Of a DNA stretch of 64,000 nt, positions 6,615 through 40,515 are shown in pieces. The notes beneath the pieces were generated by a model that was not told where the DNA came from, ran no database searches, and saw only the letters and a program-made list of their open reading frames with translations. The first letter of the stretch is position 1. Each line of letters opens with the position of its first letter. Position numbers and translations under genes: made by a program. This stretch comes from Candidatus Omnitrophota bacterium (GTDB lineage: Bacteria > Omnitrophota > Gorgyraeia > Gorgyraeales > Gorgyraeaceae), in NCBI GenBank assembly GCA_018824145.1, contig JAHJHC010000032.1, forward strand, positions 5,330 through 69,329. Direction: 5' to 3'.

Positions 6615-6861
6615 TGATTATAGGAGATGATGATTCCTCGACGACAATAGTTACTTTATTCTGATCGACTTTAACGATCCCTCTCTGTATATTAAATCTC
6701 TCTTCATCTATAAACAACGCACCTGAAATAAGCCGGCTTAAAATACGTTTGTGAAACGGTATTATCTCAAATACACCTTGCTCTCCAGGAACAATCACAC
6801 TCTGTGCCTTCCCTTTAAAAATAATCTTTCTGGGTGTTAATACATCCACATCTAATTGCAT
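6604..6861 (-). CDS. atpC: F-type ATPase epsilon subunit, N-terminal beta-sandwich domain only.
   Basis: The 85-aa protein contains LDVDVLTPRKIIFKGKAQSVIVPGEQGVFEIIPFHKRILSRL, which resembles the epsilon N-domain. It overlaps the c gene by 11 nt. Confidence 0.55.
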   Translation of the reverse strand: MQLDVDVLTPRKIIFKGKAQSVIVPGEQGVFEIIPFHKRILSRLISGALFIDEERFNIQRGIVKVDQNKVTIVVEESSSPIINGS

Positions 6862-7715: not shown

Positions 7716-7801
7716 CTCTTTTTCCTCCTGTTTATTATAGTTGAATAATAACTTTTATACTAATATACCATATAATATACCCTATATACCACCTAAAGTG
7801 C

Positions 7802-7834
7802 AAAAAAAACTTGCCTTTTTTAAAAAGGCAAGTT
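7802..7834 (-). terminator. Intrinsic (rho-independent) terminator downstream of the giant gene.
   Basis: The stem CTTGCC/GGCAAG (7810-7815 and 7827-7832) has an AT loop. On the minus strand it is followed by a U8 tract, the complement of A8 at 7802-7809. Confidence 0.6.
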
Positions 7835-7857
7835 TCTCTTTTGGAAATTTGGAAATT

Positions 7858-7930
7858 GGAAATTCGGGACACATCCCAATTTTCACGCGTAGCTACAAAG
7901 CTTGAAAATTGGGATGTGTCCCGAATTTCC
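7858..7930 (-). repeat. A 27-bp perfect inverted repeat with a 19-nt loop, forming a large stem-loop in the giant-gene 3' UTR and flanked by short tandem GGAAATT repeats.
   Basis: Positions 7858-7884 (ggaaattcgggacacatcccaattttc) are the exact reverse complement of 7904-7930. The loop contains the palindrome GTAGCTAC. GGAAATT occurs three times on the left flank and CGAATTTCC twice on the right. Confidence 0.8.
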
Positions 7931-7983
7931 CGAATTTCCCTTACGCGCATCCAGCATCAAACATTGAGATTCCATAAAATACC

Positions 7984-10900
7984 TTACTGCATTAGTACAA
8001 TAGGATCTTCAATCCCGCCAATTTTACTTTCAAAAGTCTGCAACACTACATCAACTGTTCCATTTATCGCGTCTGTCTTATTGCGGATCTCTTTTACAGT
8101 AGGTGATTCTGTCAAGGCCTCTTCTAAGATTGTGCCCATATCATACCCTTCCTCACCAGCTAAGGCCTTTATCCTATCCGAGACCTCATTAATTGCATTA
8201 GTGATTACAGCAGTAGGACCTTCTTTCGACATAATCTCAGGCAAAGCATCTACGGAACTCTTAAGATTCTTTAGTGTGAGCGCAATATTTATACTATCAC
8301 CGGAAATCAATACTGCCTCTAATGCCTTTATAGCCTCCAATGCCTTCTTGGCTGCACGTGATGCCTCTGGAGCTGCGGCTGCAAGTCCTGCTACTGTAGT
8401 AATACTCATGGATTCAACCATCCCTGAACCTACCAAGACTGTACCAGTCTGCTGTTCAGTGACCATGTAGGTATAGGCCTTACCAGCAGGGAAGTTTCCG
8501 TCAGCTTCAACCTTTGCTATATACATTCCCGGTGTATCCTGGGTCATAAGTAGCCCTTCTTCAATAGCATCTCCGTCCCAGGCATAAATATATACCTGCG
8601 GCAAGAGATTCGGCAACCCTATACATTGTAGAGTAATAGTATCTCCTGTTAATGCCGGATCAGGAAATACTGCAACACTCCACTCGTATTTTCCAACCAT
8701 ACCTGAACCAGTGACCAGTCCGCCTGTCTCTGATTCTTGGATAATGAAAGAGTATGCTTTACCTGCTTCAAAACTATCATCAGCTTCAAATTCATACACA
8801 TAAACTCCGTCGCTACTCTCTTTCATTATACTACTATAGACAAGGTTACTATTAACATCGTAAATATCAATTACAGGGGCTAACCCAGGTTGACCTTGGC
8901 AGTTTATGGTTACGGTTTCATTGGTCAATACTGGATTAGGGGACACACTAGCACCCCACGAATATTTCAATGCAGTTTCCATAAGGGTTTCACCTGCTTC
9001 TACAGCCATATCAGCACCTTCCTGCAAGTCCTCAATCGCTGATTGTGTCCTTGTCTCAAAACTGGTCAGTGTCATATCAACCATTGCAATCATCTCATCA
9101 GTCTTAGAATCAATAAGGGCTGACTGTTCATTCATCTTTGTCTCAATAGTCTCAGTCTGTGCTGAAACTATATCTACGACTTCATCTGTCTTTTGATCAA
9201 GAAGGATAATCTGTTGATCCATAGAAGCCTGTATCTCGCCGCTAATCACTGACATTGGTTTATCTAACACATAGTCGATCTTATCGTCCATGTTTTCAAG
9301 AGAGTCTTCCATAGATGCCATGGCAGTAGGTATAGTAACAGTGAATGATACAGGCGTTGTGAAGTTACCTCCAGTACCAAGCACAATGTAAGTCTTTACA
9401 GTATATACCTTACCTGCCTGCAAGGTATCATAGGCAGTTCCTCCGGAAGTATGAGATGTCGGAGTCCAGGTCTGTGGGAAAAAACCAGCAAAATCAATAG
9501 GAGTCTGGATTTCACCTGTCTTATAAGTTGCGCAATCTGCTATATTCTCAAACTGGAAGCGTTCCACTTCTTGCTCTAAATCAGGATCCCAACTCGTACC
9601 AAGCCAGATATCAACAGTCGACGGTATATCTTCATAGAAGTAGTGCTTCTCAGGATCCCCTGCTTGCGGTGTATCTTCTTCCTGTACTAAGATTGTCTTT
9701 CTCTTGATCTGTTCAAATCCATCGTAAATCTTTACATCAACAACCAATGCCCCAGGAACCAATGAACCATCTCTTTCCAGCCATGAAGTTATATCCAATC
9801 TGTCAGTCTCTACATCATAAGAAAACTCTGAGTACGCCCTCCAGATATGTACAACCAATGTTTCCATAGTACGGAAAATCTTCCTGTCTCCCCATACTTT
9901 ACCTTCTTCGTCCACTCCGGTAAAATATGTTACTTCAATTGGACCATAATCTTTGTGGGTGAAGGTTGCTGTCCAATTGTCAGCTGTAACATCATGGTTT
10001 TTGGGCGAACTAACACCTGTTGCGTCCCAGCCAGGCCATCCACTTGTTGAGACTTCACTTACTGTCAACCCATTTATATGCTGGTTCGTAATTAAATCTC
10101 GTATATCCCATGTAATCGTATAGTAATCTATCTTCATTGTAGTGGATACACCAGCTGGAAAACCTGGATCAACATATGGACCCTCTATAAATACGTCAGG
10201 GTCATTGTGGTCATATATACGGATCTTTACAGTATCTGAACGATCATTAGCAATCTTCCAGTCAAATGTACCAGTATTATCCCAGTCTAATGCCTGCTGC
10301 CCTAGATCATTTTTAATAAGAATCTGATTGTCAGGCACGCCGTCTGCCGGGTCTATATCCGCGAAATTATCTTTTGAATAGTATATATCTACTTTAGGTA
10401 TAGTACCAAATGTTGTCCAGGTAACTTCACGTACTTCATTTGTAACCCAGCGACACTCATAGTCTAAAACTTCTGCCGGATCCCCGCCTTCTTTCAATGC
10501 TATGGCAGGAGAAGTAAGAGTGAAATCACCCTGAATCTTAAATTCGCCGGAATCGTCATTTACAATGCTCTCCAACAGAGTCCTTGCATCAGCTACTTTT
10601 ATCACGCAGGTAGGTGAGATATAATCCTCTACTATCCATGTGAATGAATGCGTTGCACCCGGATTCTGAGGATCATATACACCGTTGGTTACGATACCTG
10701 TATTAGCAGTGCCAGGATCATTATCTTCATCTATAGGAACAAACGGGCCTCCTACACCGTTCTGCGATATGGTTATCTTCACCTGCGGCATTGTTCCGCC
10801 CCATTCCCATGTAATGTCGTGAGAACTGGCAACTGCCCATTTTTCATCTGCAACAGGTGCATGAGTTATTATATAACCTATTATCTCAAAACTTTGGCTT

Positions 10901-16900: not shown

Positions 16901-19900
16901 TTGATCATTGCCTGATCTTTAGTCAAAATATCTTCATCAGTAGGAATTGTCCAAGGATACGAAACAGGAGGCGTAGCAGTATATGAAGAGTTAATTACAT
17001 ATCCTCCGTACGGAGGATACGTTACTCCGTCGTCATTAGAATATACTATTTCGAATACATTAGGCGAACCTACTGTACCTATAAGACCTGTTACATTCCA
17101 CTCAATAAGATTACCTGAAGTCCCAATAACCCATTTGTCATTTGAGTCAGGTGAAGTAACAGTTATTACTGCGCGTATCTCAAATGTAGCTGATAGGTCT
17201 ACTGCTGCAGCATTGTCAGGATCACTAATTTTAAATTGGCAGGCAACAGACTTAACATCTGTAGGCACACTCCATGAACAGCTCTCTGAGTTTGTTACAA
17301 GACCCGTATGACCGGTGGGATTAGTCTTGTAGTCAATATCGTGCCATGTAGTACCGTCAAAAAATTCAAGTTTTGCAATAGGAATCTGTCCCTGCAGGTC
17401 ATAATTTTCCCATTTAATAGTATATGGATCACCTGCTGAAAGCGTTGTAGGAAGCAGAGCATCATTGATGTCAAAGTTTCCTGCAATATGGAATGTCGGG
17501 GACTCGTATTTCGTATATGTTTGACGATCCGTATCAACATCCTGGATCATAATCTGAGTAGTTAGAGTAATATGAGGTCCGACACCGTCTATACCAGCAT
17601 CCGGATCATCAAATGTCCACGTATCAGGAGAACCTGGTACAGTACTCTCAGTCTTAAGGTATTGATAGCCCTCACCGTCATCATAATCTATAAGTATATC
17701 CACACTGGTCAATTGATTACCGTATGCTGTCCAGTTAACTGTCTTATTAGTCTCTCCTACAAACCAGTTAGCATCCTGGGCAGGAGATAAACCATAGACA
17801 ATCCTTCCAAGTACGCGGAACGGAGATGAATCTCCGTATACCTTGTCCTCGAATCCAGTATCTTTATCTCTTACTCTTATCACTGCCTGGTTATAGCTTA
17901 ATTGCAGCGGGGCAGTTATAGCTGAACAGGTTTCTTCGGTATTAACATTATCCAAAAGCAATGTACCGGGAAGCCCGCCTGTTCCTGTAGATGAATAGTA
18001 GATCTGCACAGTAGATATAAGATTATCGTCGGATATAATATCTTCTGTCCAGGTCACTGTCTGATTCTCTAATCCAGCCCTCCATATAGGCGGATTAGAA
18101 CCTTCGTCACCAGCTGAAGGAGTAATGGTTACTCCGCTTATTGTCGGGTATGCACTGAATGTACCTGCTGATTCACCTTCTGCCTTTGGCGAAGTCTGTG
18201 CGTCTCTTATCCGAATCGTGCAATTGTTGCTTTTAACATCAGGTATTTGTGGTACGTTATAGGTCTCTATATTACCGTCTCCTACTGTGGCTGTGCCGCC
18301 CACAGCTAAATTATGCTCTGTTGTTCCATCATAGAGATAGATATATACTGTACTCATGGTATCTCCATAAGCACGCCATTTGACCTGTCTATTTGTATCT
18401 CCTACATTCCAGTCTATATCAAACGGCGCATAGTCTACTGTCGGAGTAAGTACAGTTATCTTACCTCGTATGTACATTGCGACTGAGGCAGCGCTTATTA
18501 CACTGCTATAATCTGTCTCATTCGCATCTCTCACCTTAAATTTAGTCGTATCCGTAAGATCAGCTGTTACCGGTATGGTCCACTGGTAAGTACCGCTTCC
18601 TACTGGGGTTGCAACTCCATTAAATGCACTTACATTAAACGGATCCAGATTTGTATCAACTGTATATTCATCTCCTGTAAAATTCCCTGAAGGAGATGCA
18701 ATGATCTTTACCTTATTTATCTCACCATGGTTTACATCCCATGATATGGCCTTTTGTTCTGTTATCCTCCAGGTAGTTGTCGTAGCAGGTGCGGTTAAGG
18801 TAAGAGCACCTCTTACCTTAAAGGCATCGCTTAGTACAAATGTCCCGTCAGTACCGGACTTTTCATAATTTGTATCTTCTATTAAAATCTTATAGTTTGG
18901 TATAAGTGGTGTTTCTGGAATTATCCATGCTGAGGCAAGTGACTGCTGTAAAGCCGCAGTTGTTGAAAATGTGCGGTCAGCAACTATTACATTCGAGAAG
19001 GTCACACCGTCTGTCGCATATTTTACACTCACTGCATTTATACGGCCATCCCTCTGCCAGGTTATCTGCGTACTATCTCTACCTACAAATCCACTGGCTA
19101 ATGTACCTGCAGTCGGAGTAATTATAGTCAGCTGTCCTTTTACTATGAAATCCAATGATTCATCTACGACATATGTGCCGAATGTTGAGGTATCTTCTAT
19201 CTTTATAAGTGAATCATCACCAGCATCCACCCTTGTTATATAATCCCCTGTTGCTGGATTTGTCGGGATAGTCCAATCGTATGAACCCTGGTTCGGAATA
19301 GTATCATCACCATCTGCATCACCGTCACCATCATCATCTTCAGCAGCCATTGAAGCAACTAGCTCTGTCCAGCCACCCCCTGTGTCTCTGGAATATGATA
19401 TCTTTACATTAGTTACAGGACCGTACACATCCCATGAAACAGTATTTGCTGTTGCGCCGTCTGCTGTCCAAATATCACCTTGACTAGGTGCAGTAACTTC
19501 TACATTACCGCATATCACAAATTCATTCGATTCTTTTGCTGTACTCGGTTGAAGCGGCGTACTTGCTGTAATCCTGAACTTTATATCTTCTGCAGCAAGA
19601 TTTAAAGGTATTGGATTATCATGTGCACCAGTCGTATCCCATGTATATGTGTTCTCATTAGCTACTCCTGAACCATGTTTATTGTTAGCAACTCCATCCT
19701 TTATCAATAACCATTCTCCACTGGCACCTGAATCTTTATTCCAGTATTCCAGTTTTACCGCGGAAACACTGTCACCGATTGTATTCCATTTGATTACAAA
19801 GGACGGCGTCAATGAATCTACATGGAAAGGCTCTCCTCCTGTTGGATATGCGAATGTAAAGGAAGAAGTTATCTTAAATGCATCTGATGTAGTAGTAGTT

Positions 19901-28900: not shown

Positions 28901-31900
28901 GGTTGCAGTGGAGTACTCGACGTAATCCTGAACTTTATATCTTCTGCAGCCAGATTCAGAGGCAGCAGATTATCATGCGCACCAACTGTATCCCATGTAT
29001 ATGTATTTTCATTAGCAACTCCTGAGCCGTGTTTATTATTGGCAACTCCATTCTTTATCAACAGCCATTCACCTGATGTCCCTGAATCCTTATTCCAGTA
29101 TTCGAGTTTTACTGCAGAAACACTATCACCTATAGTATTCCATTTAATTACAAAGGATGGCGTCAATGAAGTAACATGAAACTCCTCACTGCCTACAGGA
29201 TACGCAAATGTAAATGAGGCTGTTATTTTAAATGCCTCTGATGTAGTAGTAGTTGCATCATCATAATTATCATTGGCATCTTGGATCCTTATCTGTACAT
29301 TATTCCCGACTTCATTAGGAACACCAGCCGGATCCCATGCCCCACCAGCAGATGCTGGATTATATCCTGCTACTCCGTCATCTACGTCAACATTGGCTTT
29401 TAAGAGCACCTCACTTGTTCCGGTGCCATAACCGTCATAATCTATATATATATCTACAGCACTTACATCTCCGTCATAATGCCACTTGATCAGCTTATCA
29501 GTTGCACCTACCTGCCAATTATGTGTATCATCAGGCTCGTCTATATATATCTTACCAGCTACCCTGAAGTCTGTCTGCATCATGGCATTTACATCATCAT
29601 CAAAGTTGGAATCTGCATCCCGGACCGCGATACGTCCCTGCAGGGTCCTTGTTGAAGGTACTGTTATTGTGGCGCAGCTTCCTTGAGCAGTAGACCAATC
29701 ATCCATTATCGGCGTATCTGTCCCAAAGTTAAAACCTCCTGAACCTGTTGAACTATAGTAAATATCTACTGTATCAACCTGTGCGCTTGTATCCGTCCAT
29801 GTAACTTCCTGGTTAGTAGCACCTGTTATCCATACGTTTGCTACATCCGGTGGATCTGTAGGAGTTATTGCGACATTTGATAAAACAGGGTATGCGCTGA
29901 ATGCACCTGATTCTCCTTCTACATCAGCATCGACTCTTATCACTGTATCCCTTACCCTGACTGTACAGGCATTGCTCTTTACATCAGGAACTGACGACGG
30001 TAGAGTAAAGTCCTGCGGGTTGCCATTACCTGCTGTTGCTACACCGCCGCTGTCTAATTGATGCTCGACTCCGTCATCACCGTCATAGAGAAATACATAT
30101 ACAGTGCCTAAAGCACTTCCATAGGCAGAGAATTTTACTATCTTACCTGTATCTCCGACTTTCCAGTCAACGAACGGAGAGTAATCTACTGTAGGTGTCT
30201 GGACTAGAATATTAGCCCTCATATCCATGGCAGCTGAGGCATTGCTCTTTATATCTGTAAAACTTGCATTGTCATGCACTACCTTGAATTTTATGGTATC
30301 CACAAGGGGTGTACTAATAGGGATAGTCCAAGGATAGTTTCCGCTTCCTACCTTTGAAGGCAATAAACCTGTATTGAACGCCTCTACATTGAATGGATTA
30401 AGGCCTGTCACAACATCATATTCGTCTCCTGAGAAATTTCCGGAAGGAGACGCAATTATTTTTACATAATCCAATTGCCCGTGGTCTACCTCCCAGGATA
30501 TGGTCTTTTCCTCTGTTATCCTCCATGTAGCTGTAGCTGTAGGGGCAGTAAGGGTAAGTGCGCCTTTGATCCTGAAAGCATCACTTGGGACAAATGTTCC
30601 GTCTGTGCCTGACTTTTCATAATTTGCGTCTTCAATCAGTAATATATACTCGTCAGTTACCGGGGTCTCCGGTACCTGCCATTGGCTCGCTGTGGATTGT
30701 TGTGTAGAATTTATAGTCGCAAATGTGCGGTCTTGAGCTATTACATTGGAATAATTATCAACACCATTATTTGTAGAGTATTTTACGTTTACTGCATAGA
30801 TACGTCCGTCTCTTTCCCATGTTATAGTATTGGAACTCGCACAGTTTAAACCTGCCGAAAGCGCGCCTACAGTAGGTGCTATCAGCCTTAATTGACCTTT
30901 TACCATAAAGTCAAGAGATTCATCTGTGGCATATGTATCAAACGGAGCTACTGCATCAGATACCTTTATAAGTGAACCATGAGCGGCATCTACTCTGGTA
31001 ATAAAGTCGCCTTGTGCTGGGTCTGTTGGGATAGTCCATTGATATGCGCCTTTATTTGCTGCTGCATCTCCTGCTTCTCCTGACTGCTCAGTGAGCTCCA
31101 CATAAGATTCACTTACGTCTCTGGTGTAGAATACCTTTACGTTGCCCACAGGTCCGAAAACATTCCATGACACTGTATTAGCTGTTGTACCATCCGCAAC
31201 CCACGTTACACCTTGTGTAGGGGCAGTAACTTCTATATCTCCGCATAGCACAATAGTAGCTGATTCCAATTCTGTATCTGGCTGGTTCGGAGTTACGGCT
31301 GTAATCCTGAATTTAACATTTGTCGCAGCAAGGTTTACTGGAAGCGGCCCTGTTGAATCAGCATCCCATGTATAACTATTTTCAGTGTCTCCCCAGCTAT
31401 TGTTGGCAAGGCTGGGTTCTATGGGAGTCCATCCATTAACATTATGGAAATACTCGAGTTTCACTGCGGTTATATTCGTACCGCTGGTCTTCCATTTTAT
31501 GAGGTACCCAGTAGGATCTGTATCATCATCAATGTGATGAACTTCTCCTACTGCAGCGGGTTTTGTAAACTCAAATCCGCCAAGTATAGGGAAAGGATCT
31601 GATGTATCAGTTGTTACAGTATATGCATCAACATCATCTATTTTAATCTTTACATTGTTTCCAACATAATCACCTATACCTTCGTCAGTCGGATCTCCGG
31701 GATCTTCCCATGTCCAGCTATTATACCCGCTTGAACACGCAATCGTAGTAAGTGTCTCATCCATAGTGCCATCACCATTATAGTCAGCATAAATCTTTGC
31801 ATCCCCTATAGTACCTTTAACATTCCATTCAATCAGACGGGTCGTATCCCCTACTGTCCAGTCCAAACACGTGTCATCAGGCTTAGAAATAACGATCTCA

Positions 31901-37900: not shown

Positions 37901-39993
37901 TCCGTATCTGTAATCTTGACCCTAAGCTGTTCGCCTATAAGATTCGTTCCACTGATATCTGCAGGTATATCCCATCCATAGAACCCTGTAGGGCAATGTG
38001 TATCTTCTTCAACTGGCGATGCTGGCGTCTCGTAAATAGCTGTTCCTATATATCCAGAGCCGCCGTTTACAGAAAGCTCTATCTTTACTTTATGCTGATT
38101 ACTGTATCCTGTGCCTCCGCTATTGGTAGAATCAGCATAGACCCATACTATATCCTTAAGCTGTCCTACGGACCAGACCTCTTTCTCTTCTGTATAATCA
38201 GGCGGCAGTCCGCCATTGGGTACCTTTACTGTAAGAGGCGCAAGCTCCACTACATAATTACTTATGTTTATAGCCACGTAAGTATCGACTCGGTTTAAGG
38301 TAAGGGTAGTAGCAGGCGGCCCTCCTGATAGATCAGCCCTTATCCATTCAGAACCAGTAGTAGCACTCCTCGTAGTAGAGCCTCCTGAAACGCTGTAGGT
38401 TATAAATGACCTTGTATCATCTATTGTATAATCCAGGACCTGATTCTGTGCATTGGCAGCTGCAGCAATGCTCTGAGAATACTGCTGGATCAGAGTAGAT
38501 TCATCAGTAAATTCTACGACAGACCATGCGATTTCCATATTTCCTGCTGTGCCTACGCGGTCAAATGTAAGCGTAGTAGGATTAGTTATTACGCCCCGCG
38601 TAAAAGTATCATCCCAGTATGTAGCAGTAATTGCATTAAGATAACTAAACACAAGAAAGCTTTTATCTACATCCACTTCCTCTGGTATCTCTGCTGTAGT
38701 AGATGAGACTGCGACAGCCATCGTAGCATAGGAGGAATGATGCTGGACTTTGGCATCTGTCTCAAATGAGACAACCTGCCACATGATATTACAGGCCCGG
38801 GCGCCTATGCCTGTACCACGCTTGAAATACAGCGTCTTTGAAACCCCTCCTCCTGCAACCGGGGGTATATATTCATACACTTCAAAGTAAATATCCCTAT
38901 CGCTCTCAGCAGTGCCGTTCCAATAACATATGCCGTCAGGATACGGATTTCCAGTCATCCTCCTGATATTTACGTCAGAGGCAGTATTCCCTCCAGGCGT
39001 ATCGCGCAGGTCAATATAATAAGTCTGATTATCATTAAGCGTTACCGGCGTAGAGAATTCTATATCAAACCATCCCCAGCTACCAGGAAGGGTAGTCGCA
39101 TCTATATTGGTGACACTGGAATCAGTAACTATCGTACCGTTCTCTGTCTCTCTGATGGAAAAATCCACATACTGCGGAGCAGGGCTGATAGCATTTCTAT
39201 CTATGTAAAGACTGACCTTATCCAGCTGATAAGTAGCACCAGTACTGTCATACTTAAACTGTTGTGCAAGTCTATAGCTGGAAAGCGTGGTGCCCACATA
39301 ACTGACTGCACCACTATTACAGTATGAAATAGGCCCGGGTGCTGCCTCGCCCTCTATGAATTCACCCAGCGGGAATACATCAGGTACATTAGTTACAATA
39401 TAAGCATTGGGGCTTAATAGTAAAAAGCTCTTATTCATATCTACTTGGAACGGCAGAATAGTGTATCTATCCTGTTTATCTTCGGCAAGGATTGTTACGC
39501 CTCTCTGGACAAAGACCCCGTCTGTAAACTCCACAATGCGCCAGTTTATATTCCTGGTAGAATACTCTTCCTGAGCGCCCAGCTCTAACCGGTAGGCATC
39601 ATAAAAGTCCACATATATAAGATTACCTGCCTGATAACCTGCTGTTGAATCATTACTATCAAGTGTTGCAAAGGCAACGCATTTAGTTACATCACTAACA
39701 GGTGTATGGGCATCTGGAGAGCCTGTATAGCCGTCTGTGCCGTCATCTATCCAGACAACACGCACAAAGCTCGTACCCGCACTTCCTGTAGGAGCAAGTG
39801 TAGCTGTGCCTTTATAGACCTTCTTCACCTGCACTGCTTCTGCCTCTGGCACTAAATAAACCATAGAGGAAAGTAGATACACCCCTCCCGTAAGCAATAT
39901 TGCCCCAATGAAGACGCCTAGATTTTTCAGTAATCTTTTCTGCAGATTCAGATTTTTTTCTTTCATCTTCAGAAAATTATTATACGTCTTCAT
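7984..39993 (-). CDS. Giant surface or adhesin-like protein of 10,669 aa. It has an N-terminal signal-anchor, a unique roughly 600-aa N-terminal region, more than 100 tandem Ig-like beta-sandwich repeats of about 90-100 aa, and a non-Ig C-terminal region.
   Basis: It is a single uninterrupted ORF of 32,010 bp. The N-terminus KNLGVFIGAILLTGGVYLLSSMVYLV is hydrophobic. A recurring domain signature (...W.VG....I.W...G....V.I.YS.DGG.....I.......Y.WT.P......IKI.D..) runs throughout. A GGAGG SD lies upstream of the ATG. Confidence 0.9.
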   Translation of the reverse strand: MKTYNNFLKMKEKNLNLQKRLLKNLGVFIGAILLTGGVYLLSSMVYLVPEAEAVQVKKVYKGTATLAPTGSAGTSFVRVVWIDDGTDGYTGSPDAHTPVSDVTKCVAFATLDSNDSTAGYQAGNLIYVDFYDAYRLELGAQEEYSTRNINWRIVEFTDGVFVQRGVTILAEDKQDRYTILPFQVDMNKSFLLLSPNAYIVTNVPDVFPLGEFIEGEAAPGPISYCNSGAVSYVGTTLSSYRLAQQFKYDSTGATYQLDKVSLYIDRNAISPAPQYVDFSIRETENGTIVTDSSVTNIDATTLPGSWGWFDIEFSTPVTLNDNQTYYIDLRDTPGGNTASDVNIRRMTGNPYPDGICYWNGTAESDRDIYFEVYEYIPPVAGGGVSKTLYFKRGTGIGARACNIMWQVVSFETDAKVQHHSSYATMAVAVSSTTAEIPEEVDVDKSFLVFSYLNAITATYWDDTFTRGVITNPTTLTFDRVGTAGNMEIAWSVVEFTDESTLIQQYSQSIAAAANAQNQVLDYTIDDTRSFITYSVSGGSTTRSATTGSEWIRADLSGGPPATTLTLNRVDTYVAINISNYVVELAPLTVKVPNGGLPPDYTEEKEVWSVGQLKDIVWVYADSTNSGGTGYSNQHKVKIELSVNGGSGYIGTAIYETPASPVEEDTHCPTGFYGWDIPADISGTNLIGEQLRVKITDTDMSARNIDISNEDFIIKGVLTIDQPPNTWRIGEQQDITWDYLGHLDTLSTTTVTIKLSIDGGQTYLSTPLSTTTSVGTGAGDGGSGTFPWTIPAAIDGENLIGTNCVIKITSNYDPDSPNTTVQTISQPFTLRGRITSVTPTSPTTWYLGEQDKTISWMKHGHFGTGITDGTVNIFYSNNDGLSYNTPIKLDEPAGASGTGSSYDWDIPFSLVQPAQDDYAKIKVVQSDIADSTVYGESASITIEQGSITLVEPMGGDERWITGSTTGDNGHIVWSNTSNLSTTNVKLYVSRNSGVAWEYIDEVAANLNYNTTYTNQSYYQWTPELPISDEAMVKIESSQAELTGVEDESDLVFDIDATVTLIQHDGGAPSWQVGTSHDIIWEYEGDVGPVGNNKVYISISRNTGGTWEKLNGGVGIDVANNYNTTYSNQCFWTWDPVPAPESTQAMIRIESAAYPSDIDDESAAVFTIEQVVTITKPELNDVWRYGTQRDIEWTLKGSTTDDKVKVFYKKGAGGYAEIAPGVDKPSTDLKYAWTIPNDLDNEVYVKVQDYSLTNIYHESPAFKIKGSIVVTAPTTNFVKISDTSETTAITWDVNGSITGWAKIMLSKNSGSNYTYELTTPDTTDITAGTFNWTVLPVHEGANDMIMVALQGDEDLVTGTAGESNTGTADFAVKPQIKLSYPDATGIVKTIGETMDIRWKPVDFDFGDVMIAYSTNGGTDYDALLGGSIPSENNYDTTYEDESYYTWTIENLPGIVSQQCKIKVYSVKVGDEDDVSDASLNNFAILGSLELTTPPQNAGSPAVSPDWECGAQNAIIWDAEGSGIGDIYIYYSKNNGSDNYTNAIVDTPGVVTATDESYTWTIPDDDTVFKVGDNGLNSQIRIKIRAKDDDRIESISVADKLTIKARFVNLSPSTGTVYVGTTNYNITWETEGGGTGTNGVQTVNVKYDTEGGTGGWGGTIASGISNVDSFSWPKIDCPVTKQVTPPDNDIRIRVESVAHATDVYKESSELTVLGKLEITSPDASNINADALIAEETFRIEWVVNDNVGKTGGYDLGDLKLYYAPDGVTWEDGLGNVGTPITTLPASGNSYYDWTVPANKCTTSGNEIKIEDADETSVKHATDIDFHIKGKLYAISGGEKNHWMEAPNGGEVYYVGGADIDVQWRYKGDLGTCEIYYDDDSGTLYDIPVATVAHDKNEDGSNICHHSMQVPATAGITYRVKIYDNNDGTYVFANSQSNFVVKGAVYLGSPGMDDQNIELWFVDGFSQPPATGAPTITWTVTGGIAEVDILLDTDSGNNDYTDFTIASQIGGGSSPYSWSIPAENDRQTITTDKAGVRVRDHNDTSVSDESLYDFEIKPRIFIGTPPGIGDLWIIEQSKAITWTTTGLIGWVRLYSTPDGTNWYEQPTWASTASGSLWTIPETNTVAHNNAKIKLVRVEEDDEQVKYEDTDVVSISPTFSIGGKIVIDSPLTNQGYNVLSTGDIEWNVKGDVGNVKIMYNTNSGASYPDGSWVAFSGATEIAPDYCTNVPGTPYTVNIPESTAPEVKIRVGEMNHEFDIFGPIMAGSPTHAFKGNILFDQPPGDPSTKNETITIGSGVHTINWSNVGSFTNLKAFYKNIGDTQWTQIGSDLAGGVTSTDYTAIDSDITNPAMDNKVLFRVEDALDGQDVYAETAVGEANIVVGQLEMMQPVLDQEMTVGDSVTVKWKKYGDTGNLKFELWDGSDWLDNAGGSGLPDSRTPGASGETGVTLSWTVPDKIYNLCKIRTTAINYDGLGAPYELQDESDTFIIKGDLTSITTPGTWYVGEDHNVTWEATGIMSTVKIELYVEGTGYTTIDNAYDGHDNNPAGLKSGTNTYLWHAADTKQQQRSEQCKIRVISNQNNDIDVETTFFTLKPKITVTTPSQAWIAESNSNLIEWSAIAAPTTNINIILEDGNSGAGYPKTLASNIDKTGIPPASLSYTSTVVLPATLTNSANIRIEDAQTSPVDYTGIVYGESNPFDVIGEIVISKPDDTCLDWTVGDTTRLIEWNVKGTIGDAKIYADYNGDGTMDETLTTIACSSGYNSWTWEDPGDPTDEGIGDYVGNNVKIKIDDVDAYTVTTDTSDPFPILGGFEFTKPAAVGEVHHIDDDTDPTGYLIKWKTSGTNITAVKLEYFHNVNGWTPIEPSLANNSWGDTENSYTWDADSTGPLPVNLAATNVKFRITAVTPNQPDTELESATIVLCGDIEVTAPTQGVTWVADGTTANTVSWNVFGPVGNVKVFYTRDVSESYVELTEQSGEAGDAAANKGAYQWTIPTDPAQGDFITRVDAAHGSLIKVSDAVAPFDTYATDESLDFMVKGQLRLIAPTVGALSAGLNCASSNTITWERDGRIYAVNVKYSTNNGVDNYSNVIAQDRTFATINSTQQSTASQWQVPETPVTDEYILLIEDANYEKSGTDGTFVPSDAFRIKGALTLTAPTATATWRITEEKTISWEVDHGQLDYVKIIASPSGNFSGDEYDVVTGLNPFNVEAFNTGLLPSKVGSGNYPWTIPISTPLVDTIKFKVVHDNASFTDIKSNASAAMDMRANILVQTPTVDYSPFVDWKVGDTGKIVKFSAYGSALGTVYVFLYDGDDGVEHQLDSGGVATAGNGNPQDFTLPSSVPDVKSNACTVRVRDTVIRVDADVEGESGAFSAYPVLSNVAITPTDPPDVANVWITGATNQEVTWTDTSAQVDTVDIYYSSTGSGGFNFGTDTPIMDDWSTAQGSCATITVPSTRTLQGRIAVRDADSNFDDDVNAMMQTDFRVAGKIYIDEPDDTHNWQVGATDKLIKWHYDGDVSAVDIYIDYDGYGTGTSEVLLKANVDVDDGVAGYNPASAGGAWDPAGVPNEVGNNVQIRIQDANDNYDDATTTTSEAFKITASFTFAYPVGSEEFHVTSLTPSFVIKWNTIGDSVSAVKLEYWNKDSGTSGEWLLIKNGVANNKHGSGVANENTYTWDTVGAHDNLLPLNLAAEDIKFRITSSTPLQPSTAKVSNEFVICGNIAVTAPTQGLTLVADGTTANTVSWNVYGPVTNVKIAYSRDSKSNYVELVSSMSAEAGDAAANKGAYQWTIPTDPSLGDYITRVDASESSYIKVEDASTFGQYVSHESLDFIVKGQLRIIAPSVATLADGFVGRETTPVTWERDGRINAVNVKYATDGVTFSNSLVSDRIFATTAATQQSLASDWIIPETPLTPDYKILIEDTNYEKSGTSGTYVLSNPFTVKGALTLTAPSSTTTWNITDTNKTISWNVAHGEISKVKIIASPSGNFTGDEYVVDTNLNPFSVSAFSAAATPVGSGSYQWTIPVTAVLSDTTKFKVRDMNETDYADVISAASVAMYIRGKITVKTPTVDYLPSDDWNVGDTDKQVKFTTYGDTMSTVYVYLYDGVAEHQIDGGSGIATNGNGSEETFGGSGEFTVPDVKSHNCTIRVRNAESSPTAEGESGGTFSTYPVISNVAITPTDPPNTAGVWIAEAADQTVTWTETSAELTTVDIYYSSTGTGGFNFETDTPIVDNWSTAQGSCATITVPTERTLQGRIAVRDADSNFDDYINAMIPANFKVCGEIFIDEPDDTHNWQVGATDKLIKWHYDGDISAVDIYIDYDGYGTGDPEVLLKANVDATQGSAGYNPASAGGAWDPNGVPNEIGNNVQIRLQDADSNYESVTTTTSEAFKITASFTFAYPVGGETFHVASTTPSIQIRWNTIGDNVSAVKLEYWNKDSGASGEWLLIKSGIANNKHGSGVANENTYTWDRVGAHDNLLPLNLAAEDIKFRITSSTPDQPSTAKLSNEFVICGNIAITAPTQGLIWTADGATANTISWDVFGPVTNVKILYSRDSGVGYVELVSTMAAEDDDGDGDADEDDTIPNKGSYDWTIPTNPATGDYITRVDAGDDSYITVEDTSTFGTYVTDESLDFIVKGQLRIITPSAATFANGFTGRASTQITWERDGRINAVNVKYATDGVTFSNVITADRTFATTAATQQSLASAWIVPETPLSISYNILVEDTNYEKSGADGTFVESGNFRVKGQLTLTAPSSTDTWNITDTNKTISWDVNHGEISKVEIIASPSGNFTGDEYVVDTNLNPFNVSAFNGVATPVGSGSYSWTVPVTAVLSDTTKFKVRDDNETDFPTVITAASPAILIRGKIAVKTPTVDYLPSTDWHPGDSDKQVKFTTYGDTMGTVYIYLYDGAAEHDLAVGGISTNGDGNEETYNVPQVPDVKSINCTIRVRNAESSPTVSGESQGTFSVYPTITGVTITPSTGDEGSNPPIWRAGLGSQTVTWTENDIATPGLISEVQILYTATGGTPDTALNTGGAVTTHEICNTITAPAALSFDSAIVRVRDADTDFQDKIYADSSAFRMLGRIQYGASPSLDADWFIGDDSRQVIWSAFGTEITQLDVYADYDDGAGFNYITTIAANSSPWTFEDPEGSGTVGDNVTESAQIRLQDNDTDRGPLTQYNSVTFHIAGKFETIAVTAVDPEDTVVVSNRAAIVTWAKTGTLISDVLMQYTTNGTNWYNIVNNLEADTTTLVSNNESYSWTSPATVMSQLCKIKITDPDNSAAQGISAANFTIAPKCKVLQPDSNDSWEANDTETIEWQKWGTFPNVNIYYRPDDQTAWDLLNDAETVPSHGGDGLNGTWGWYIDEEVVLSPTAEIKVVDKDRETYTLAILSDQFTTRGSVEMLWPDDGTEGYNVYEAGIAKNIKFKRYGNIEGVKLYLWDGDSWDLMTDLGTNGVIDFVGAETEHITSWSPPEFIGTSYKIKCQDKNNADIDSESPPFKIKGKVKITDPDLQQPTWYITDQDKRIRWDVQHGNIAFVKIEISPSGAFGGDEYLIIGQTQADNEIAFDKDTSPVAKGFYDWDIQRDTPLSTIARIRVKDYNETDYDDVASTSGADVTIRGKISVQTPGVDWNVKDTGRLITWNAYGAISTVWIDFYDGNQWLLSINGAGGTACGDGDNKTWSVANWDVHGKIPDMKSNACQIRIKNATSNPTISETSGTFYVYPTITNVDIVPSVGDEAKDHTIWRAKLANQTVTWTENDISDDTLVDTVDIVYSKAGTFADAVTIKEDVLTHESCATITAPTNLSFQSAKIRVQDNDTGFENKVYGDSTEVFSVLGRVVYGASPSLGANWGIGAVDKLINWTAYGDQLTQVDIYIDYGSSYIYQKTEDTVPESPDSWTYDDIDTGVDGVGDYAAENVTVRIEDVDTDRKAYTQYLSPAFNIIGSFEFAYPLGGETFHIDDDTSPSPLQIQWKTTGSDVSKVKLEYYHNVNGWTLIDGNVDNNYGDGVQVNTYDWGPASSTPLPVNYAATDIKFRITSVVPNHPATELESEEFVICGTLDVTAPEQGEIWVADGATANTISWDVYGPVTNAKISYSRDSGVGYTVIVPTQLAEAGDAQANKGAYQWTIPVNPASGDFITRVDAADVSYIKVEDASATYGTYVNDESLDFIVKGQLTIIAPTAGTLASGFVGRDSTQITWQRDGRINAVNVKYATDGVTFSNVIAADRTFATTAATQQSLASAWIVPETPLTPNYKILIEDTNYEKSGTDGTYILSNTFTVKGALSITAPSTTTTWRITEQKTISWDVDHGQINKVKIIASPSGNFTGDEYTVDTNLDPFNVSAFSAAATPVGSGSYPWTIPVTADLTDTTKFKVRDANETDFADVISTASVVMYIRGKITVLTPSVDYAPFGVDWKVGEADKQVQFRSYGDTMSTVYIYLYDGTTEYDLAVGGTSTVGNGNIETYNVPSVPDVKSHNCTIRIRDAAVSPNAEGESGTFSAYPTISSVAITPTNPPNIAGVWVSDSENQTVTWTETSSKLTTVDIYYSATGTGGFNFETDTPIVDNWSTAQGSCNTITVATNKTTQGRIAVRDADSNFDDYINAMTATNFRVAGKIYIDEPDSAHNWPVGATDKLIKWHYDGNLTAVDIYIDYDGYGTGDPEVLLKANVDVDDGVAGYNPASAGGVWDPDGVPNEVGNNVQVRIQDGDSAYEDATTTTSDAFKITSSFTFAYPTGGEPFHVDSLTPSFVIKWNTIGDSVSAVKLEYWNKDSGASGEWLLIKDGVANNKHGSGVANENTYTWDTTGAHDNPIPLNLAAEDIKFRITASTPLQPSTAKESNEFVICGNVEVTAPSQGDIWTADGATANTVSWDVYGPVTNVKISYSRDTGGGWTELVASMAAEDDDGDGDADGDDTIPNQGSYDWTIPTNPATGDYITRVDAGDDSLIKIEDTSTFGTYVVDESLDFIVKGQLTIITPTAGTLASGFVGRDSTQITWQRDGRINAVSVKYATDGVTFSNVIVADRTFSTTAALQQSLASAWIIPETPLIPNYKILIEDTNYEKSGTDGTFVLSDAFKVRGALTLTAPATTTTWRITEQKAISWDVNHGEINKVKIIASPSGNFTGDEYTVDTNLDPFNVSAFNGVATPVGSGTYQWTIPVTADLTDTTKFKVRDANETDYSSVISAASVAMYIRGKITVLTPTVDYAPFDIDWNVGDTNRQVKWRAYGDTMSTVYIYLYDGTTEHNLAVGGTATVGDGNIETYNVPQIPDVKSNNCTIRIRDAQTSPKAEGESAGTFSAYPTISGVTITPSAGDEGSNPPIWRAGLENQTVTWTEDIISDDNLISTVQIYYSSTGTGGLPGTLLLDNVNTEETCSAITAPLQLSYNQAVIRVRDKDTGFEDKVYGDSSPFRVLGRIVYGLSPAQDANWFVGETNKTVNWTAYGNQLTSVDILIDYDDGEGYQYLKTESTVPGSPDTWTFDDPDAGIDGVGPHITLTTQIMIQDVDTDRQTYTKYESPTFHIAGNFDINDALLPTTLSAGDPYTIKWENYDLQGQIPIAKLEFFDGTTWHDIDYKTNPTGHTGLVTNSESCSWSVPTDVKSVACQFKISDPDNAAAVDLSATFEIRAVITVTSPDSNDKWVIGTSGNLIEWNVTGLIGTVGSPNVFEIVYSNDDGVTYPPYGGYVINSSYTATPPVSYPWTIPTDEDILTKDQAMIKVADASLAAACGESDSFMMKSGITVTEPETTDVLTVGTAFTIEWTTLGTADMGDVIIQFSKTGSAPWTNIATVDFEYGSSSYNLWAPAIDSITDDTKAAIVRITDVDNTEVTDDSEAFEIEGDIVWESPIESGLMWSVNTSYDIEWTPTGTFGPIKIEYSTNAFADELETNYFTSVANSAHGVRRVYPFTVPNDIDDQVKIRISHEYDSDVKAVVPYNIKFVGSLDVTAPDSQTPKPIWLKGQSKNITWTAIGDVTNVDIQYKTSAGGNYIDIILDHDGGGAYGDGSNTYQWTVEDENSENCYIKVSDTLHHTGAATDVYSVSTYPFSIRPVITVSQPVEDSNLVVLSDGHTISWSLNGSEQVSYVKLYYSVDGGSFEDLDVSGNVDATSDYTWDNIPDAISDDVVVRVVDNVNSSVYGDSPSFDIIGSITVVKPDSNSNWEVGTTDKNITWSYTGSIGLVNIYYDYGQGYDLVDASNMPVAASGQSYTWSSIPDHVSESVKIKITDEDTETAVDKVEDESVPFKIRGGFVLDAIPAYVISASGRTITWTPNGADILIAKLEFSSNNGGAWRNIDYVSAGNPGTGFVSNSGAYSWTVPSDVASTTCLVKISDPDNADAKHTSNSFEVRAKITLDSPTTSDAWVVNDNHDIEWTVTGVVNNVNIEYSVAGGDFGWVLGWAAGEDPQVDPVGQASNISASDGSFTWKIPDQMSDEINVRIADTTKPNDVKDESGNFTITGKIVLGAPVGGETWYVLDQKTISWTKTGNIPLVDVLWSEPTINGGAYQYITDGEDLTENSTTWSVPSVISDSVKVRIVNSDATKPTIAAVSDFFYVRGKLLITSPQLDQVWDSGAQKNITWTTTGPIPEVTLDYDYDGVGTGVDWITIDTDITASDQSYPWTVPPTISSNVVVRVTDELYNEVTNTSPVFKIANIVVTRPQAGDPWICQEQEDINFTVSGAITNVKIEFSSNGLSGPWTEIEPSLAVSQDANTYTWNSVTTVASTHTIIRIKDTNQKSFVTGFSPEFIVRGGFTFLHPISTDRWLANSAKTIEWTTKGTILNVYIRYRLDDQDNFDFVNDGSTISNNNQYPWTVPNAISYEAQIKISDAQDSSATTESAPFTVHGQLTVTQPNDSSSKLKAGQFDQDSKIIWTMIGPISRVDIYLSTTGDVEENYEYMTYVEGATEYSWSVPTDKGRSTNCFIRLKDPSDPQELVKDESDTAFWIIDNITVLTPDGTVPWIAGNTHAVTWTSEDIATSVDIKYKKDAPYDTWPGTVISGITNDATNSYDWPIPNSIDLTHTYRIRVSDANATYSAYCFDTSVDFTIQGTITVTEPNGGTAPDFLDMEKWGCDLTHYVKWTSQGNITNVDIAYYLGSTPPSNPNDWVDIITNYSNSGAKEYPWDIPITLTAENVLIRVKDHNTAFPDVKDVTDNPFKIMARVVVEEPETGYVWEAGTQGTIKWTRYGPSSFDKVKIEYAYNNPDFTDPGDPQDPTDIKVITSSEQFVGSVGNFGWNIPPEAVGFESMRIRISKHDDPDVYDISDAFTIRVNFTSISPNGGQKWILGHTETISWTKTGITYSDTARTQEAVKLTVYLQANPTIKYVIGVQPSSGTAGIYDWTIPTTLDYRLITDNMGLIMRVEDPNYDDPTDTDAYKDSASPFKIMPDIIVTSPVSDEQWFVNDTNRYITWTITDTTVPTLGNVTMYYSLTGGSSWTAISGSSTPATDEEWLWVPKVPDIISSQLKIKVESNDDSDCYGVAPHTVNAQTGFPNRNSFTTAPYAKISAKFTIDPNITGQDLVVGDSYQITWTNTGTVTDVKITYSLNGDTGPFDPIDEDNDPQTADTGIVANGASGGSFDWTVPDDIARDTVKLRVESSLDSDAVDTSGLFRIMGEITINAPVGGPSWEIGQDKDIKWNWVGTIPEVEITYSTNGLTGPFNPVDEDNDPGTANTGLVTNGAGAGGPGAEHTFTWTVPDEASANVIIRVADARDGTSPVGDQTDIIGESQSFEIIGYIITHAPVADEKWAVASSHDITWEWGGTMPQVKITISQNGVGGPFVPIDEDNDPGTANTGIVTNGVYDPQNPGATHSFTWIVEDYISPTCVIKVADARTLLESIVNDDSGEFKIQGDFTLTSPAIALKEGGDPAEVLDYECRWVTNEVREVTWTTFGTIPKVDIYYSKDNFADIDPADGVPDNQILIKNDLGQQALDWDNTGTFDWKIANDRSDTVKIRIYDHNDPDVFIEGPYVDPGFPAGVSTTMKIDYYTITWDIRDLITNQHINGLTVSEVSTSGWPGWDATGVSSPKNHDVTADNWTATFTHKDYGPIEVTYFTGVDEEGKVWGDRKIFRTMETLVVHIWRAYSEFSYDVETDRLDITSWLERDGSLVPGALVVDVKIYDGFEQIKRKTILVQEEDTPQAGDPEKHYFYEDIPSTVDIWLGTSWDPDLEQEVERFQFENIADCATYKTGEIQTPIDFAGFFPQTWTPTSHTSGGTAYDTLQAGKVYTVKTYIVLGTGGNFTTPVSFTVTIPTAMASMEDSLENMDDKIDYVLDKPMSVISGEIQASMDQQIILLDQKTDEVVDIVSAQTETIETKMNEQSALIDSKTDEMIAMVDMTLTSFETRTQSAIEDLQEGADMAVEAGETLMETALKYSWGASVSPNPVLTNETVTINCQGQPGLAPVIDIYDVNSNLVYSSIMKESSDGVYVYEFEADDSFEAGKAYSFIIQESETGGLVTGSGMVGKYEWSVAVFPDPALTGDTITLQCIGLPNLLPQVYIYAWDGDAIEEGLLMTQDTPGMYIAKVEADGNFPAGKAYTYMVTEQQTGTVLVGSGMVESMSITTVAGLAAAAPEASRAAKKALEAIKALEAVLISGDSINIALTLKNLKSSVDALPEIMSKEGPTAVITNAINEVSDRIKALAGEEGYDMGTILEEALTESPTVKEIRNKTDAINGTVDVVLQTFESKIGGIEDPIVLMQ
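17400..32200 (-). repeat. Nested tandem super-repeat inside the giant gene, with a period of about 2.33 kb (about 775 aa, 8 Ig-like domains) and five full copies.
   Basis: Conserved landmarks (KLEY[WFY]...GEWLLIK or HNVNGWT coding, read on the antisense strand) recur at about 31.4, 29.06, 26.69, 22.06 and 19.7 kb. Near-identical antisense pseudo-ORFs (..EKVTPSVAYFTLTAL..) sit at 18971, 21347, 25943 and 28373. VFSLATPEPCLLLA-type pseudo-ORFs sit at about 19.65, 26.6 and 28.9 kb. Confidence 0.85.
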
Positions 39994-40008: not shown

Positions 40009-40515
40009 TTAATCGCTTATTAAGACCTCGAGCTGATTCTCAGATTCTTCTTCGGAGTCAGGCTCAGGTCTTTTTATTCTTTTTGCAGCCCTCACAAAAC
40101 TAATACTTTTTGCGAGCCATTCTTCAGTAATCCTGTTTCCTCTGTTTGGCTTAGTTACCTCATGGTAAGTCACCTTCACAGCATCGCCGACTTTTATATC
40201 GTTTAAACCCTGTTTATGCACCACCTTTGTATCTTCATCAATAAGAAAAGAATAATCAGTATTTGTCTCGGCATCACCTACGGCAATAACCGTGGGATTA
40301 AATCTGGGTGTAAAATAAATAACCTCTCCTACCAACTCTTTTTCTTTAATCATCTCTTTCACAGGAGACTGTTCGCCTTCTCCTTGCTCTTCGTCGTCTT
40401 CCTGAGCAACTCCTGCCCCTATGCCTCCTAAGAGAAAAACCGCTATTAAAAATATGAGACATACAAAAATCTTTTTCATCCCGCTATCCTCCTTACTTTT
40501 AAAAATAATATTCAT
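40009..40515 (-). CDS. Small secreted protein of unknown function, located immediately upstream of and co-oriented with the giant gene.
   Basis: The 168-aa protein has a signal peptide (KKIFVCLIFLIAVFLLGGIGAGVA), an acidic linker, a beta-rich domain and an acidic C-terminus. There is a 15-nt gap to the giant-gene ATG. Confidence 0.6.
   Translation of the reverse strand: MNIIFKSKEDSGMKKIFVCLIFLIAVFLLGGIGAGVAQEDDEEQGEGEQSPVKEMIKEKELVGEVIYFTPRFNPTVIAVGDAETNTDYSFLIDEDTKVVHKQGLNDIKVGDAVKVTYHEVTKPNRGNRITEEWLAKSISFVRAAKRIKRPEPDSEEESENQLEVLISD

Follow-up and report, generated by a model that had tools for sequence, protein, structure and literature searches.

Giant exported repeat proteins are a well-documented class in the phylum Omnitrophota. 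A 2026 survey (10.64898/2026.06.07.730766) catalogued 5,761 Omnitrophota proteins of at least 10,000 amino acids (aa); of the 916 that were screened for topology, 8.6 % carried a signal peptide only and 137 were Pfam-dark. Across the same phylum, Seymour et al. (PMC10066038) reported that type-IVa pilus genes lie together with an F-type ATPase that they regard as non-respiratory and 'symbiotic'. They compared this ATPase with the gliding ATPases of Mycoplasma and treated the giant open reading frames (ORFs) separately, and they linked both the giant ORFs and the ATPase/type-IVa pilus loci to a host-attached lifestyle (PMC10066038). The gene of interest in this work is a giant ORF at 7984..39993 of a 64,000-nucleotide (nt) stretch of contig JAHJHC010000032.1 of a Candidatus Omnitrophota bacterium (GCA_018824145.1, positions 5,330 to 69,329), which we refer to as the window; all features located below are on its minus strand. 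The encoded protein of 10,669 aa is unremarkable in scale, and indeed small by Omnitrophota standards. We found that the giant gene and the short gene directly downstream of it, which encodes a membrane protein referred to here as the anchor, form a pair that belongs to a conserved ATPase/type-IV-pilus locus of Omnitrophota. The conserved C-terminal region of the giant protein, the anchor gene itself, a seven-domain super-repeat and an upstream riboswitch were all overlooked in a preliminary description of the same DNA.

The giant protein ends in a conserved, non-repetitive region of ~720 aa (aa 9950-10669; 7987..10146), for which 13 homologues were identified at 35-59 % identity, nearly all of them in Omnitrophota. 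This region consists of beta domains (HIWRAYS / SWLERDG), a coiled coil of ~115 aa, two Ig-like domains and a helical tail of ~140 aa ending in ...KIGGIEDPIVLMQ; the Ig-like domains are duplicated in the giant protein, as seen in an alignment of the region (A3) and in the model of a fused homologue, P0005. Seven of the 13 homologues continue in frame for ~240 aa more, through a beta domain, helices, a GGPP motif, a transmembrane (TM) helix and a short tail. In the window the same elements are found in a separate gene (6903..7715), which encodes a 270-aa protein with a signal peptide, a beta-sandwich (VNPS...DVW), helices, GGPP, a TM helix and a cytoplasmic tail (S-A-F). This protein is 56 % identical to the C-terminal extension of the homologue P0004, and the fusion junction in alignment A3 coincides with its predicted mature N-terminus (after ...GELKA, before AES). 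Since most orthologues carry it as an in-frame C-terminal extension, we conclude that the 270-aa protein is the missing anchor of the giant. Among 38 species-level genomes the fused state accounts for ~22 and the split state for 14, and among 41 metagenome loci the numbers are 35 and 6. Where the identity of the anchor has dropped to 30 %, its gene is still separate and lies 12 nt behind that of an Ig-repeat protein with this C-terminal region.

The two genes are separated by a spacer of 268 nt (7716..7983), which contains a perfect 19-nt inverted repeat (GGGACACATCCCAATTTTC, 7866-7884 / 7904-7922), a terminator-like hairpin (7807-7835) lying between the giant and anchor genes, and the Shine-Dalgarno sequence of the anchor gene (CAGGAGG). 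The inverted repeat is the only such pair in the window, with 0.02 expected by chance; with one pair only, its interpretation as a dispersed repetitive extragenic palindromic (REP) element was rejected within the window. Since the anchor gene has its own Shine-Dalgarno sequence and signal peptide and is preceded by a 268-nt spacer with an inverted repeat and a hairpin, the arrangement is a true split and not a sequencing error. Gene fusion is a classical indicator that two proteins act together, and we take the giant and the anchor to do so; the fusion suggests that the helical tail of the giant docks on the ectodomain of the anchor. A 188-aa gene that precedes the anchor in a distant locus, L046, was considered as a relative of the giant tail and rejected as unrelated.

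The preliminary description had reported no LPXTG, PEP-CTERM or type IX secretion system (T9SS) C-terminal domain. We can confirm that LPXTG and PEP-CTERM motifs are absent throughout the giant protein, whose C-terminus is hydrophilic and helical, and that the match to the T9SS sorting domain (TIGR04183 / Por_Secre_tail) reaches 16.8 bits against a cut-off of 23, at aa ~10,350-10,401, ~270 aa from the C-terminus; the conclusion of no anchoring is superseded by the adjacent 270-aa membrane protein. The last 744 aa contain no C-terminal beta-barrel and no other Pfam match. A search of the PDB with the C-terminal profile returned nothing useful (one coiled-coil match to ZorA, E 0.014), and a Foldseek comparison of the fused C-terminal model with the PDB gave generic Ig-like and macroglobulin matches only, which leaves the anchor fold unassigned.

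The anchor module belongs to a large family, with 837 cluster representatives at E <= 1e-3 and no Pfam or NCBIfam match. Its members occur as standalone proteins of ~270 aa, as the C-terminal end of proteins of up to 5,013 aa, and in two or three tandem copies. One protein of 623 aa (P0046) joins two anchor modules through a TM helix to a diguanylate cyclase (GGDEF) on the cytoplasmic side. The signature of the family is a VNPS...YLP.E...DVW beta domain followed by helices, GGPP, a TM helix (TW.VIF...F) and the cytoplasmic S-A-F, and the anchor in the window carries all residues that are invariant in the family alignment (A4). The TM helix and one cytoplasmic Phe are invariant across the family, a degree of conservation that passive anchoring alone would not require.

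An F-type ATPase operon (1911..6861) begins 41 nt downstream of the anchor gene; its genes encode an epsilon subunit consisting of the N-domain only (85 aa, 6604-6861), a c-like subunit with Gln at the carboxylate position (6399-6614), a b/delta fusion (5634-6377), alpha (4154-5674), gamma (3304-4152) and beta (1911-3323). Downstream lie genes for an MshEN-domain protein (1449-1898) and for a T2SSE/PilB-like ATPase, of which the window contains the start (1-1460); in two related loci (L003 and L004) the ATPase operon likewise has MshEN and T2SSE genes behind it. No deviation from this gene order was seen in the related loci examined. The anchor is directly followed by epsilon-like and c-like genes in all 38 genomes. 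A reverse test that started from the c-like gene in metagenome loci with enough sequence found the anchor upstream in 41 of 41, the giant C-terminal region upstream in 26 of 26, and b/delta and alpha downstream in 32 of 32. These counts are inflated, since the loci come from one phylum-level clade and share ancestry. With MshEN and T2SSE after beta, the window also shows the co-location described by Seymour et al. (PMC10066038) for the 'symbiotic', type-2/3-like ATPase.

Several traits of the operon are non-canonical. No a subunit was called in the ATPase operon of the window or of related loci, and among 92 distinct c-like sequences the carboxylate position is occupied by Gln in 46, by Glu in 42 and by other residues in 4. 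The lost c carboxylate and the lack of an a subunit in the operon are independent evidence that the ATPase is not an ordinary ATP synthase. Helix 1 of the c-like subunit is without the glycine-rich GxGxGxG motif, and epsilon is without its C-terminal domain. The alpha and beta subunits of the window are nearer to canonical F1 by PDB similarity (450-480 bits, versus 349 bits to the G1-ATPase beta of Mycoplasma mobile). In a distant lineage (L046-L048, 8001-10335) the anchor, epsilon-like and c-like genes are followed by a gene for a VWA protein, with no alpha, beta or gamma, and MshEN, T2SSE, PilZ and T2SSF genes lie divergently upstream of the trio; in another locus (L050) a three-copy anchor protein is followed by an epsilon-like (DE_N) gene.

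On its other side the giant gene is the third of a tight operon. The first gene (40512..41780) encodes a 422-aa protein with an N-terminal Y1/REP-associated tyrosine-transposase-like domain (Pfam Y1_Tnp, E 2.4e-10; NCBIfam REP_Tyr_transpos, 68.9 bits, below the cut-off of 80) and ~280 unassigned residues. The second (40009..40515), which shares 4 nt with the first and leaves a gap of 15 nt to the ATG of the giant gene, encodes a small acidic protein of 168 aa with an N-terminal hydrophobic segment. Both have counterparts in a related locus, L006, where a homologue of the 422-aa protein is found at the same place (2262-3455) and a 159-aa gene before the giant is weakly homologous to the 168-aa protein (32 % over 119 aa, E 8e-5). 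Ahead of the operon we identified a riboswitch aptamer of the c-di-GMP-I-GGC type (GEMM-I clan) at 41886..41964, which matches Rfam RF03167 over its full length (60.5 bits versus a gathering score of 59, E 8e-12). A terminator-like hairpin with a T-run, a putative expression platform, begins 8 nt after the aptamer (41848..41878), and a promoter-like site (TTGATT-17-TATACT), which is a consensus match only, is located at 41995..42023. A match to RF03167 precedes the orthologous small gene and giant gene in L006 as well (3706-3787, 46.9 bits, E 8e-9). The conserved locus also encodes the receptor domains for cyclic di-GMP (c-di-GMP) MshEN and PilZ. Taken together with these domains, which lie downstream, and with the GGDEF fusion of P0046, the riboswitch leads us to place the locus under probable cyclic-dinucleotide control.

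The giant gene itself is intact. The ORF starts with ATG, just 3' of AAAGGAGG, and its translation has 0 internal stops, so that the uninterrupted 32-kb frame first described is borne out; at the base composition of the window the probability of 10,669 stop-free codons is P ~1e-332. The 23 ORFs of at least 150 aa in the window are all co-directional except for one spurious overlap. Two protein fragments from an independent metagenome-assembled genome (MAG) at NCBI cover the ends of the protein: P0164 corresponds to aa 1-1484 with 1 mismatch, and P0003, from a separate contig of the same MAG, is identical to aa 9620-10669. The sole discrepancy over these 2,534 independently assembled residues is at aa 1420 (nt ~35734-35736), Ala here versus Asp in P0164. 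Both fragments are partial proteins, as expected of short-read assemblies that break inside repeats, and the central 8.1 thousand residues are supported by the present assembly alone. Collapse or chimerism of this central part is unlikely, because its repeats are only 70-76 % identical at the DNA level and the longest exact repeat is 47 nt. The synonymous divergence (dS) between paralogous super-repeat blocks is 1.1-1.3 and the ratio of non-synonymous to synonymous divergence (dN/dS) is 0.11-0.18, which indicates purifying selection; on the DNA identity and dS > 1, a recent tandem expansion or an assembly collapse was rejected. These comparisons indicate that the gene is an old, translated and selected sequence, and not a collapse, a chimera or a pseudogene.

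Some orthologues appear to be disrupted. In L003 (2-8819) the gene is seen as a piece of 1,485 aa and a C-terminal piece of 466 aa, between which lie an ORF of 237 aa and, on the opposite strand, one of 522 aa; in L005 (1-5625) a 671-aa ORF overlaps the next reading frame; insertions, frameshifts or assembly errors could be the cause.

Most of the giant protein is a rod of 85 tandem Ig-like beta-sandwich domains (aa 594-9949; 10147..38214), delimited with an iterated self-trained hidden Markov model at a period of ~110 aa. This corrects the earlier count of more than 100 domains of ~95 aa. The repeat consensus is P...W..G....I.W...G....V.I.YS.DGG..Y......Y.W.vP......kIrV.D......eS..F.I.G, and its predicted structure is a generic seven-strand Ig-like (E-set) beta-sandwich of ~100 aa (predicted local distance difference test, pLDDT, 88), in agreement with the beta-sandwich nature first proposed for the repeats. 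The model was folded from a single-domain alignment (A2); a two-domain alignment (A1) was dropped because MAFFT slipped register between neighbouring domains. Unit-to-unit identity is ~22 % at most lags and rises to a mean of 32-37 % at lags of 7, 14, 21 and 28 units, with a best value of 89 % at the aa level. These peaks identify units 22-63 (17170..31242) as six super-repeats of seven domain types, with ~790 aa per block, flanked by 21 diverged units on the N-terminal side and 22 on the C-terminal side.

The only Pfam family that came into view for the repeats is PF10342 (Kre9_KNH). On a 12-repeat stretch it scores 17.8 bits versus a gathering score of 24.6, and on single repeats 10 of the 85 match at E < 0.01 (best 2.6e-5), all below the gathering score. 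Four orthologues (P0165-P0168) carry precomputed PF10342 matches above threshold and are named by NCBI after the Kre9_KNH family. Judging from these matches, the giant repeats are a divergent relative of Kre9_KNH. Pfam and NCBIfam searches with the head, a 12-repeat stretch and the tail otherwise gave sub-threshold matches only (DUF4082, Reelin_subrepeat-B and Por_Secre_tail, besides Kre9_KNH), and no Pfam match to SecA_DEAD, dockerin/TSP3 or enzyme domains was found in the head, in any of the 85 repeats or in the tail. The many N-x-S/T sites mentioned earlier are not an enrichment: with 103 observed versus ~115 expected, an enrichment of N-glycosylation sequons was rejected. The Asp-box (S-x-D-x-G-x-x-W/Y/F) was likewise rejected as a defining feature, with only 5 occurrences.

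At the N-terminus (aa 1-53; 39835..39993) a basic, lysine-rich N-region is followed by a hydrophobic segment at aa 24-49, the single TM-like segment in a Kyte-Doolittle scan of the whole giant protein, and by AEA/V. The preliminary description had proposed a signal-anchor here; the hydrophobic segment with its basic N-region is present and may be either a signal anchor or a cleaved signal peptide. The head that follows (aa 54-593, ~540 aa; 38215..39834) contains ~100-aa modules of the W-x-VVEF type and an insert of ~180 aa (aa ~210-390) with a sub-threshold match to DUF4082. The motifs are WRIVEF (aa 151), WQVVSFE (405), WSVVEF (490) and a degenerate NYVVEL (579), the last of which marks a probable fourth, degenerate copy of the module. 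The three W-x-VVEFTD modules first described are thus real, with their number probably being four and with the insert to be added. Self-BLAST of the head showed no internal repeats, and the modules become visible through homologues only, when the head is cross-aligned with its only two detectable relatives among 5.8 billion proteins: P0001, a fragment from the N-terminal part of an orthologue in Omnitrophota that is laid out in the same way, and P0002, a beta-helix protein from Acidimicrobiia. A PDB sequence search with the head gave nothing useful and no solved relative.

With somewhat better than even confidence, we propose that the giant and its anchor form an attachment fibre that is tethered to the membrane and regulated by a second messenger. 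In the three-gene operon, transcription would start behind the GEMM-I-type riboswitch with its terminator. Because these elements lead the operon, the fibre would be made in response to a cyclic dinucleotide. Such responsive production is known for pili and adhesins in other bacteria. The giant would be exported by the Sec pathway as a rod made of the signal, a head of ~540 aa with four modules, 85 Ig-like domains and a C-terminal region of ~720 aa, and at ~4 nm per domain the rod would be ~0.3 um long. The C-terminal region would be the attachment end, tethered to the cytoplasmic membrane through the anchor, either fused or in trans; here the anchor module is a separate secreted protein, which the helical tail of the giant would bind. 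The N-terminal head would be free if the signal is cleaved at AEA/V and would otherwise also be held at the membrane, and, being poorly conserved, it may be exposed as the recognition end. Its most likely role would be in the contact with other cells, as a regulated surface fibre that attaches the cell to them or spaces it from them; the surface exposure and the adhesive role are inferred.

A number of observations weigh against the attachment fibre. No ligand-binding or lectin domain was identified, in a protein whose head has only two homologues and no solved relative; the adhesin for cell-cell attachment of the preliminary description is accordingly not shown, no ligand-binding domain having been identified in head or tail, and what is supported is an exported giant Ig-repeat protein from Omnitrophota, a phylum that the preliminary description guessed correctly. 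The organism appears to be diderm (heptosyltransferase and SurA-like genes occur in the window), and nothing was found that would carry a fibre with an inner-membrane anchor across the outer membrane. The binding of tail and anchor is drawn from gene fusion only, and the fused model of P0005 has a predicted template modelling (pTM) score of 0.31 with helical parts at low confidence. Finally, in the orthologue P0001 the motif AEAVQ lies ~27 aa past the hydrophobic segment, where it probably belongs to a strand of the first module and does not mark a site of cleavage.

The alternative that survives best, which we consider unlikely, is a structural envelope coat, a spacer, or a periplasmic or surface belt with both ends in the cytoplasmic membrane, that is, with an uncleaved N-terminal signal anchor and the C-terminal anchor, in the manner of a two-component S-layer, in which a large exposed protein is paired with a small TM stalk (SlaA/SlaB). 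Both termini do carry membrane-targeting features with positive-inside flanks, the Ig-like body is monotonous and without a recognisable binding domain, and a length of 0.3 um would correspond to about half the circumference of a 0.2-0.3-um cell; a giant protein of V. archaeovorus has been proposed as a coat (PMC10066038). A cyclic-dinucleotide riboswitch, however, is better suited to a conditionally expressed organelle than to an envelope layer that is made constitutively. Conservation is lowest in the head, which is what one would expect if this end recognises a partner, and S-layer proteins match the giant no better than other Ig-like domains do.

Somewhat less probable again is a machine powered by the ATPase, with the fibre as its outer arm, in which the TM helix and tail of the anchor would couple the giant to the F-type ATPase and ATP hydrolysis would move or tension the fibre, by analogy with M. 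mobile, where an F1-like ATPase drives giant TM-anchored surface legs. The synteny speaks for such a coupling: epsilon-like and c-like genes right after the anchor in 38/38 genomes, the anchor upstream of the c-like gene in 41/41 metagenome loci, and the persistence of the anchor/epsilon-like/c-like trio without alpha, beta and gamma (L046-48), together with a DE_N gene after the three-copy anchor (L050). The invariant TM helix and cytoplasmic Phe of the anchor family, the altered ATPase (Gln in 46/92 c-like sequences, no a subunit in the operon, epsilon without its C-terminal domain) and the relation drawn by Seymour et al. between the non-respiratory ATPase and the Mycoplasma gliding types (PMC10066038) would be in keeping with it. 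Synteny is not interaction, however, and all scanned loci come from one phylum-level clade. By bit score the alpha and beta subunits of the window side with canonical F1 (450-480) rather than with the G1-ATPase beta of M. mobile (349), a terminator-like hairpin stands between the giant gene and the anchor/ATPase genes, and the likeness to the Gli proteins is one of architecture only. The stronger version, in which giant, anchor and a-less ATPase would make up one trans-envelope machine, a cyclic-dinucleotide-switched diderm counterpart of the M. mobile gliding motor, we regard as still more doubtful; if it were true, the anchor would transmit the effect of intracellular ATP hydrolysis to a fibre of 0.3 um outside the cell.

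It is very improbable, and largely refuted, that the protein is a giant adhesin of the classical Gram-negative kind, secreted by a type I, V or IX system (LapA/SiiE/MpIBP-like, an autotransporter or T9SS cargo). The size and the Ig-like repeat body recall SiiE, LapA and MpIBP, and there is the weak Por_Secre_tail match of 16.8 bits. Against these stand the Sec-type signal at the N-terminus, the absence of an RTX block (a single chance GGxGxD occurs at aa 1110), the last 744 aa without a beta-barrel or other Pfam match, a T9SS-like match that is below the cut-off of 23 bits and ~270 aa from the C-terminus, and the absence of type I, V or IX secretion system genes among the 20 neighbours scanned. 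An assembly chimera or decaying pseudogene is hardly credible: the central 8.1 thousand residues are seen in one assembly alone and copies are disrupted in some relatives (interrupted in L003, a frameshift or overlap in L005), but the gene has 0 stops in 10,669 codons (P ~1e-332), its paralogous blocks are under purifying selection, its repeats are too diverged for mis-assembly (longest exact repeat 47 nt), and both ends of the protein are reproduced in an independent MAG.

Beyond the three-gene operon, the window contains at 42104-55314 genes for five proteins of ~620-760 aa, each with an unassigned N-terminal part of ~400 aa and C-terminal TPR repeats. They are interleaved with genes for two B12-binding radical-SAM enzymes and are followed by LPG_synthase_TM and GT9 heptosyltransferase genes.

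Among known systems, the nearest class to the giant is that of the 'tandem-repeat scaffold' among the Omnitrophota giant ORFs, signal-peptide-only and Pfam-poor (PMC10066038; 10.1101/2023.11.21.568195; 10.64898/2026.06.07.730766). With these it shares the phylum, a length above 10,000 aa, an N-terminal export signal, repeats that are old at the DNA level, type II secretion/type IV pilus genes nearby and a proposed role in contact with other cells. The flagship types (Archaeovorins, the dockerin type and the multi-enzyme type) have tens to hundreds of TM helices, SecA_DEAD, dockerins or enzymes, whereas the present giant has one TM-like segment and Ig-like domains only. The three papers make no mention of the C-terminal anchor module, the ATPase adjacency or the riboswitch, and the ATPase adjacency is not mentioned in the two giant-protein surveys (West-Roberts 2023; Nielsen & Lui 2026).

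Outside the phylum, proteins with PF10342 repeats are alike in belonging to the only Pfam family touched by the giant repeats; unlike these 'GPI-anchored Ser-Thr-rich' proteins, the giant has no glycosylphosphatidylinositol (GPI) signal, stands in a bacterial context and matches below the gathering score. The staphylococcal Ebh/Embp are giant wall-spanning proteins, of which Ebh has helical repeats (FIVAR/GA) and a monoderm host. They resemble the present system in having an N-terminal signal, a repetitive rod of ~10,000 aa and a C-terminal TM helix with a charged cytoplasmic tail, and differ from it in that here the repeats are Ig-like and the anchor can be a separate polypeptide. SiiE, LapA and MpIBP, which are type I-secreted Ig-repeat adhesins, likewise have tandem bacterial Ig-like domains in a long rod whose ends are distinct, whereas the giant has a Sec signal, no RTX block and no type I secretion signal, and no type I secretion genes were found among the neighbours scanned in the window. 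The likeness to archaeal S-layers (SlaA/SlaB) is one of architecture only, with no sign of a lattice or of homology. The gliding legs of M. mobile include Gli349, in which 18 repeats of ~100 aa are combined with a TM segment at the N-terminus, and Gli521, whose TM segment is C-terminal (PMC7052211). Like the present giant, they are very large surface proteins that are anchored by a TM segment and have repeats of ~100 aa. In M. mobile they are functionally tied to a non-respiratory F1-type ATPase, and Seymour et al. relate the Omnitrophota ATPase to these types; the leg and motor genes are not adjacent there, the alpha and beta subunits of the window look canonical, and the coupling here is hypothetical.

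The Omnitrophota giants are numerous but functionally opaque, and the one described here is among the simplest. Its anchor represents a large unannotated family that could receive a name and a model, its riboswitch predicts when the fibre is made, and its partnership with the ATPase and the type IV pilus is strictly conserved, in a phylum where the ATPase and pilus locus has been discussed apart from the giant ORFs. The anchor, the synteny and the riboswitch together make the functions of the Omnitrophota giants and of the 'symbiotic' ATPase directly testable. What is new with respect to the known giants is the combination of a single TM segment and a pure Ig-like body with a defined anchor, a strict coupling to an a-less ATPase and a riboswitch.

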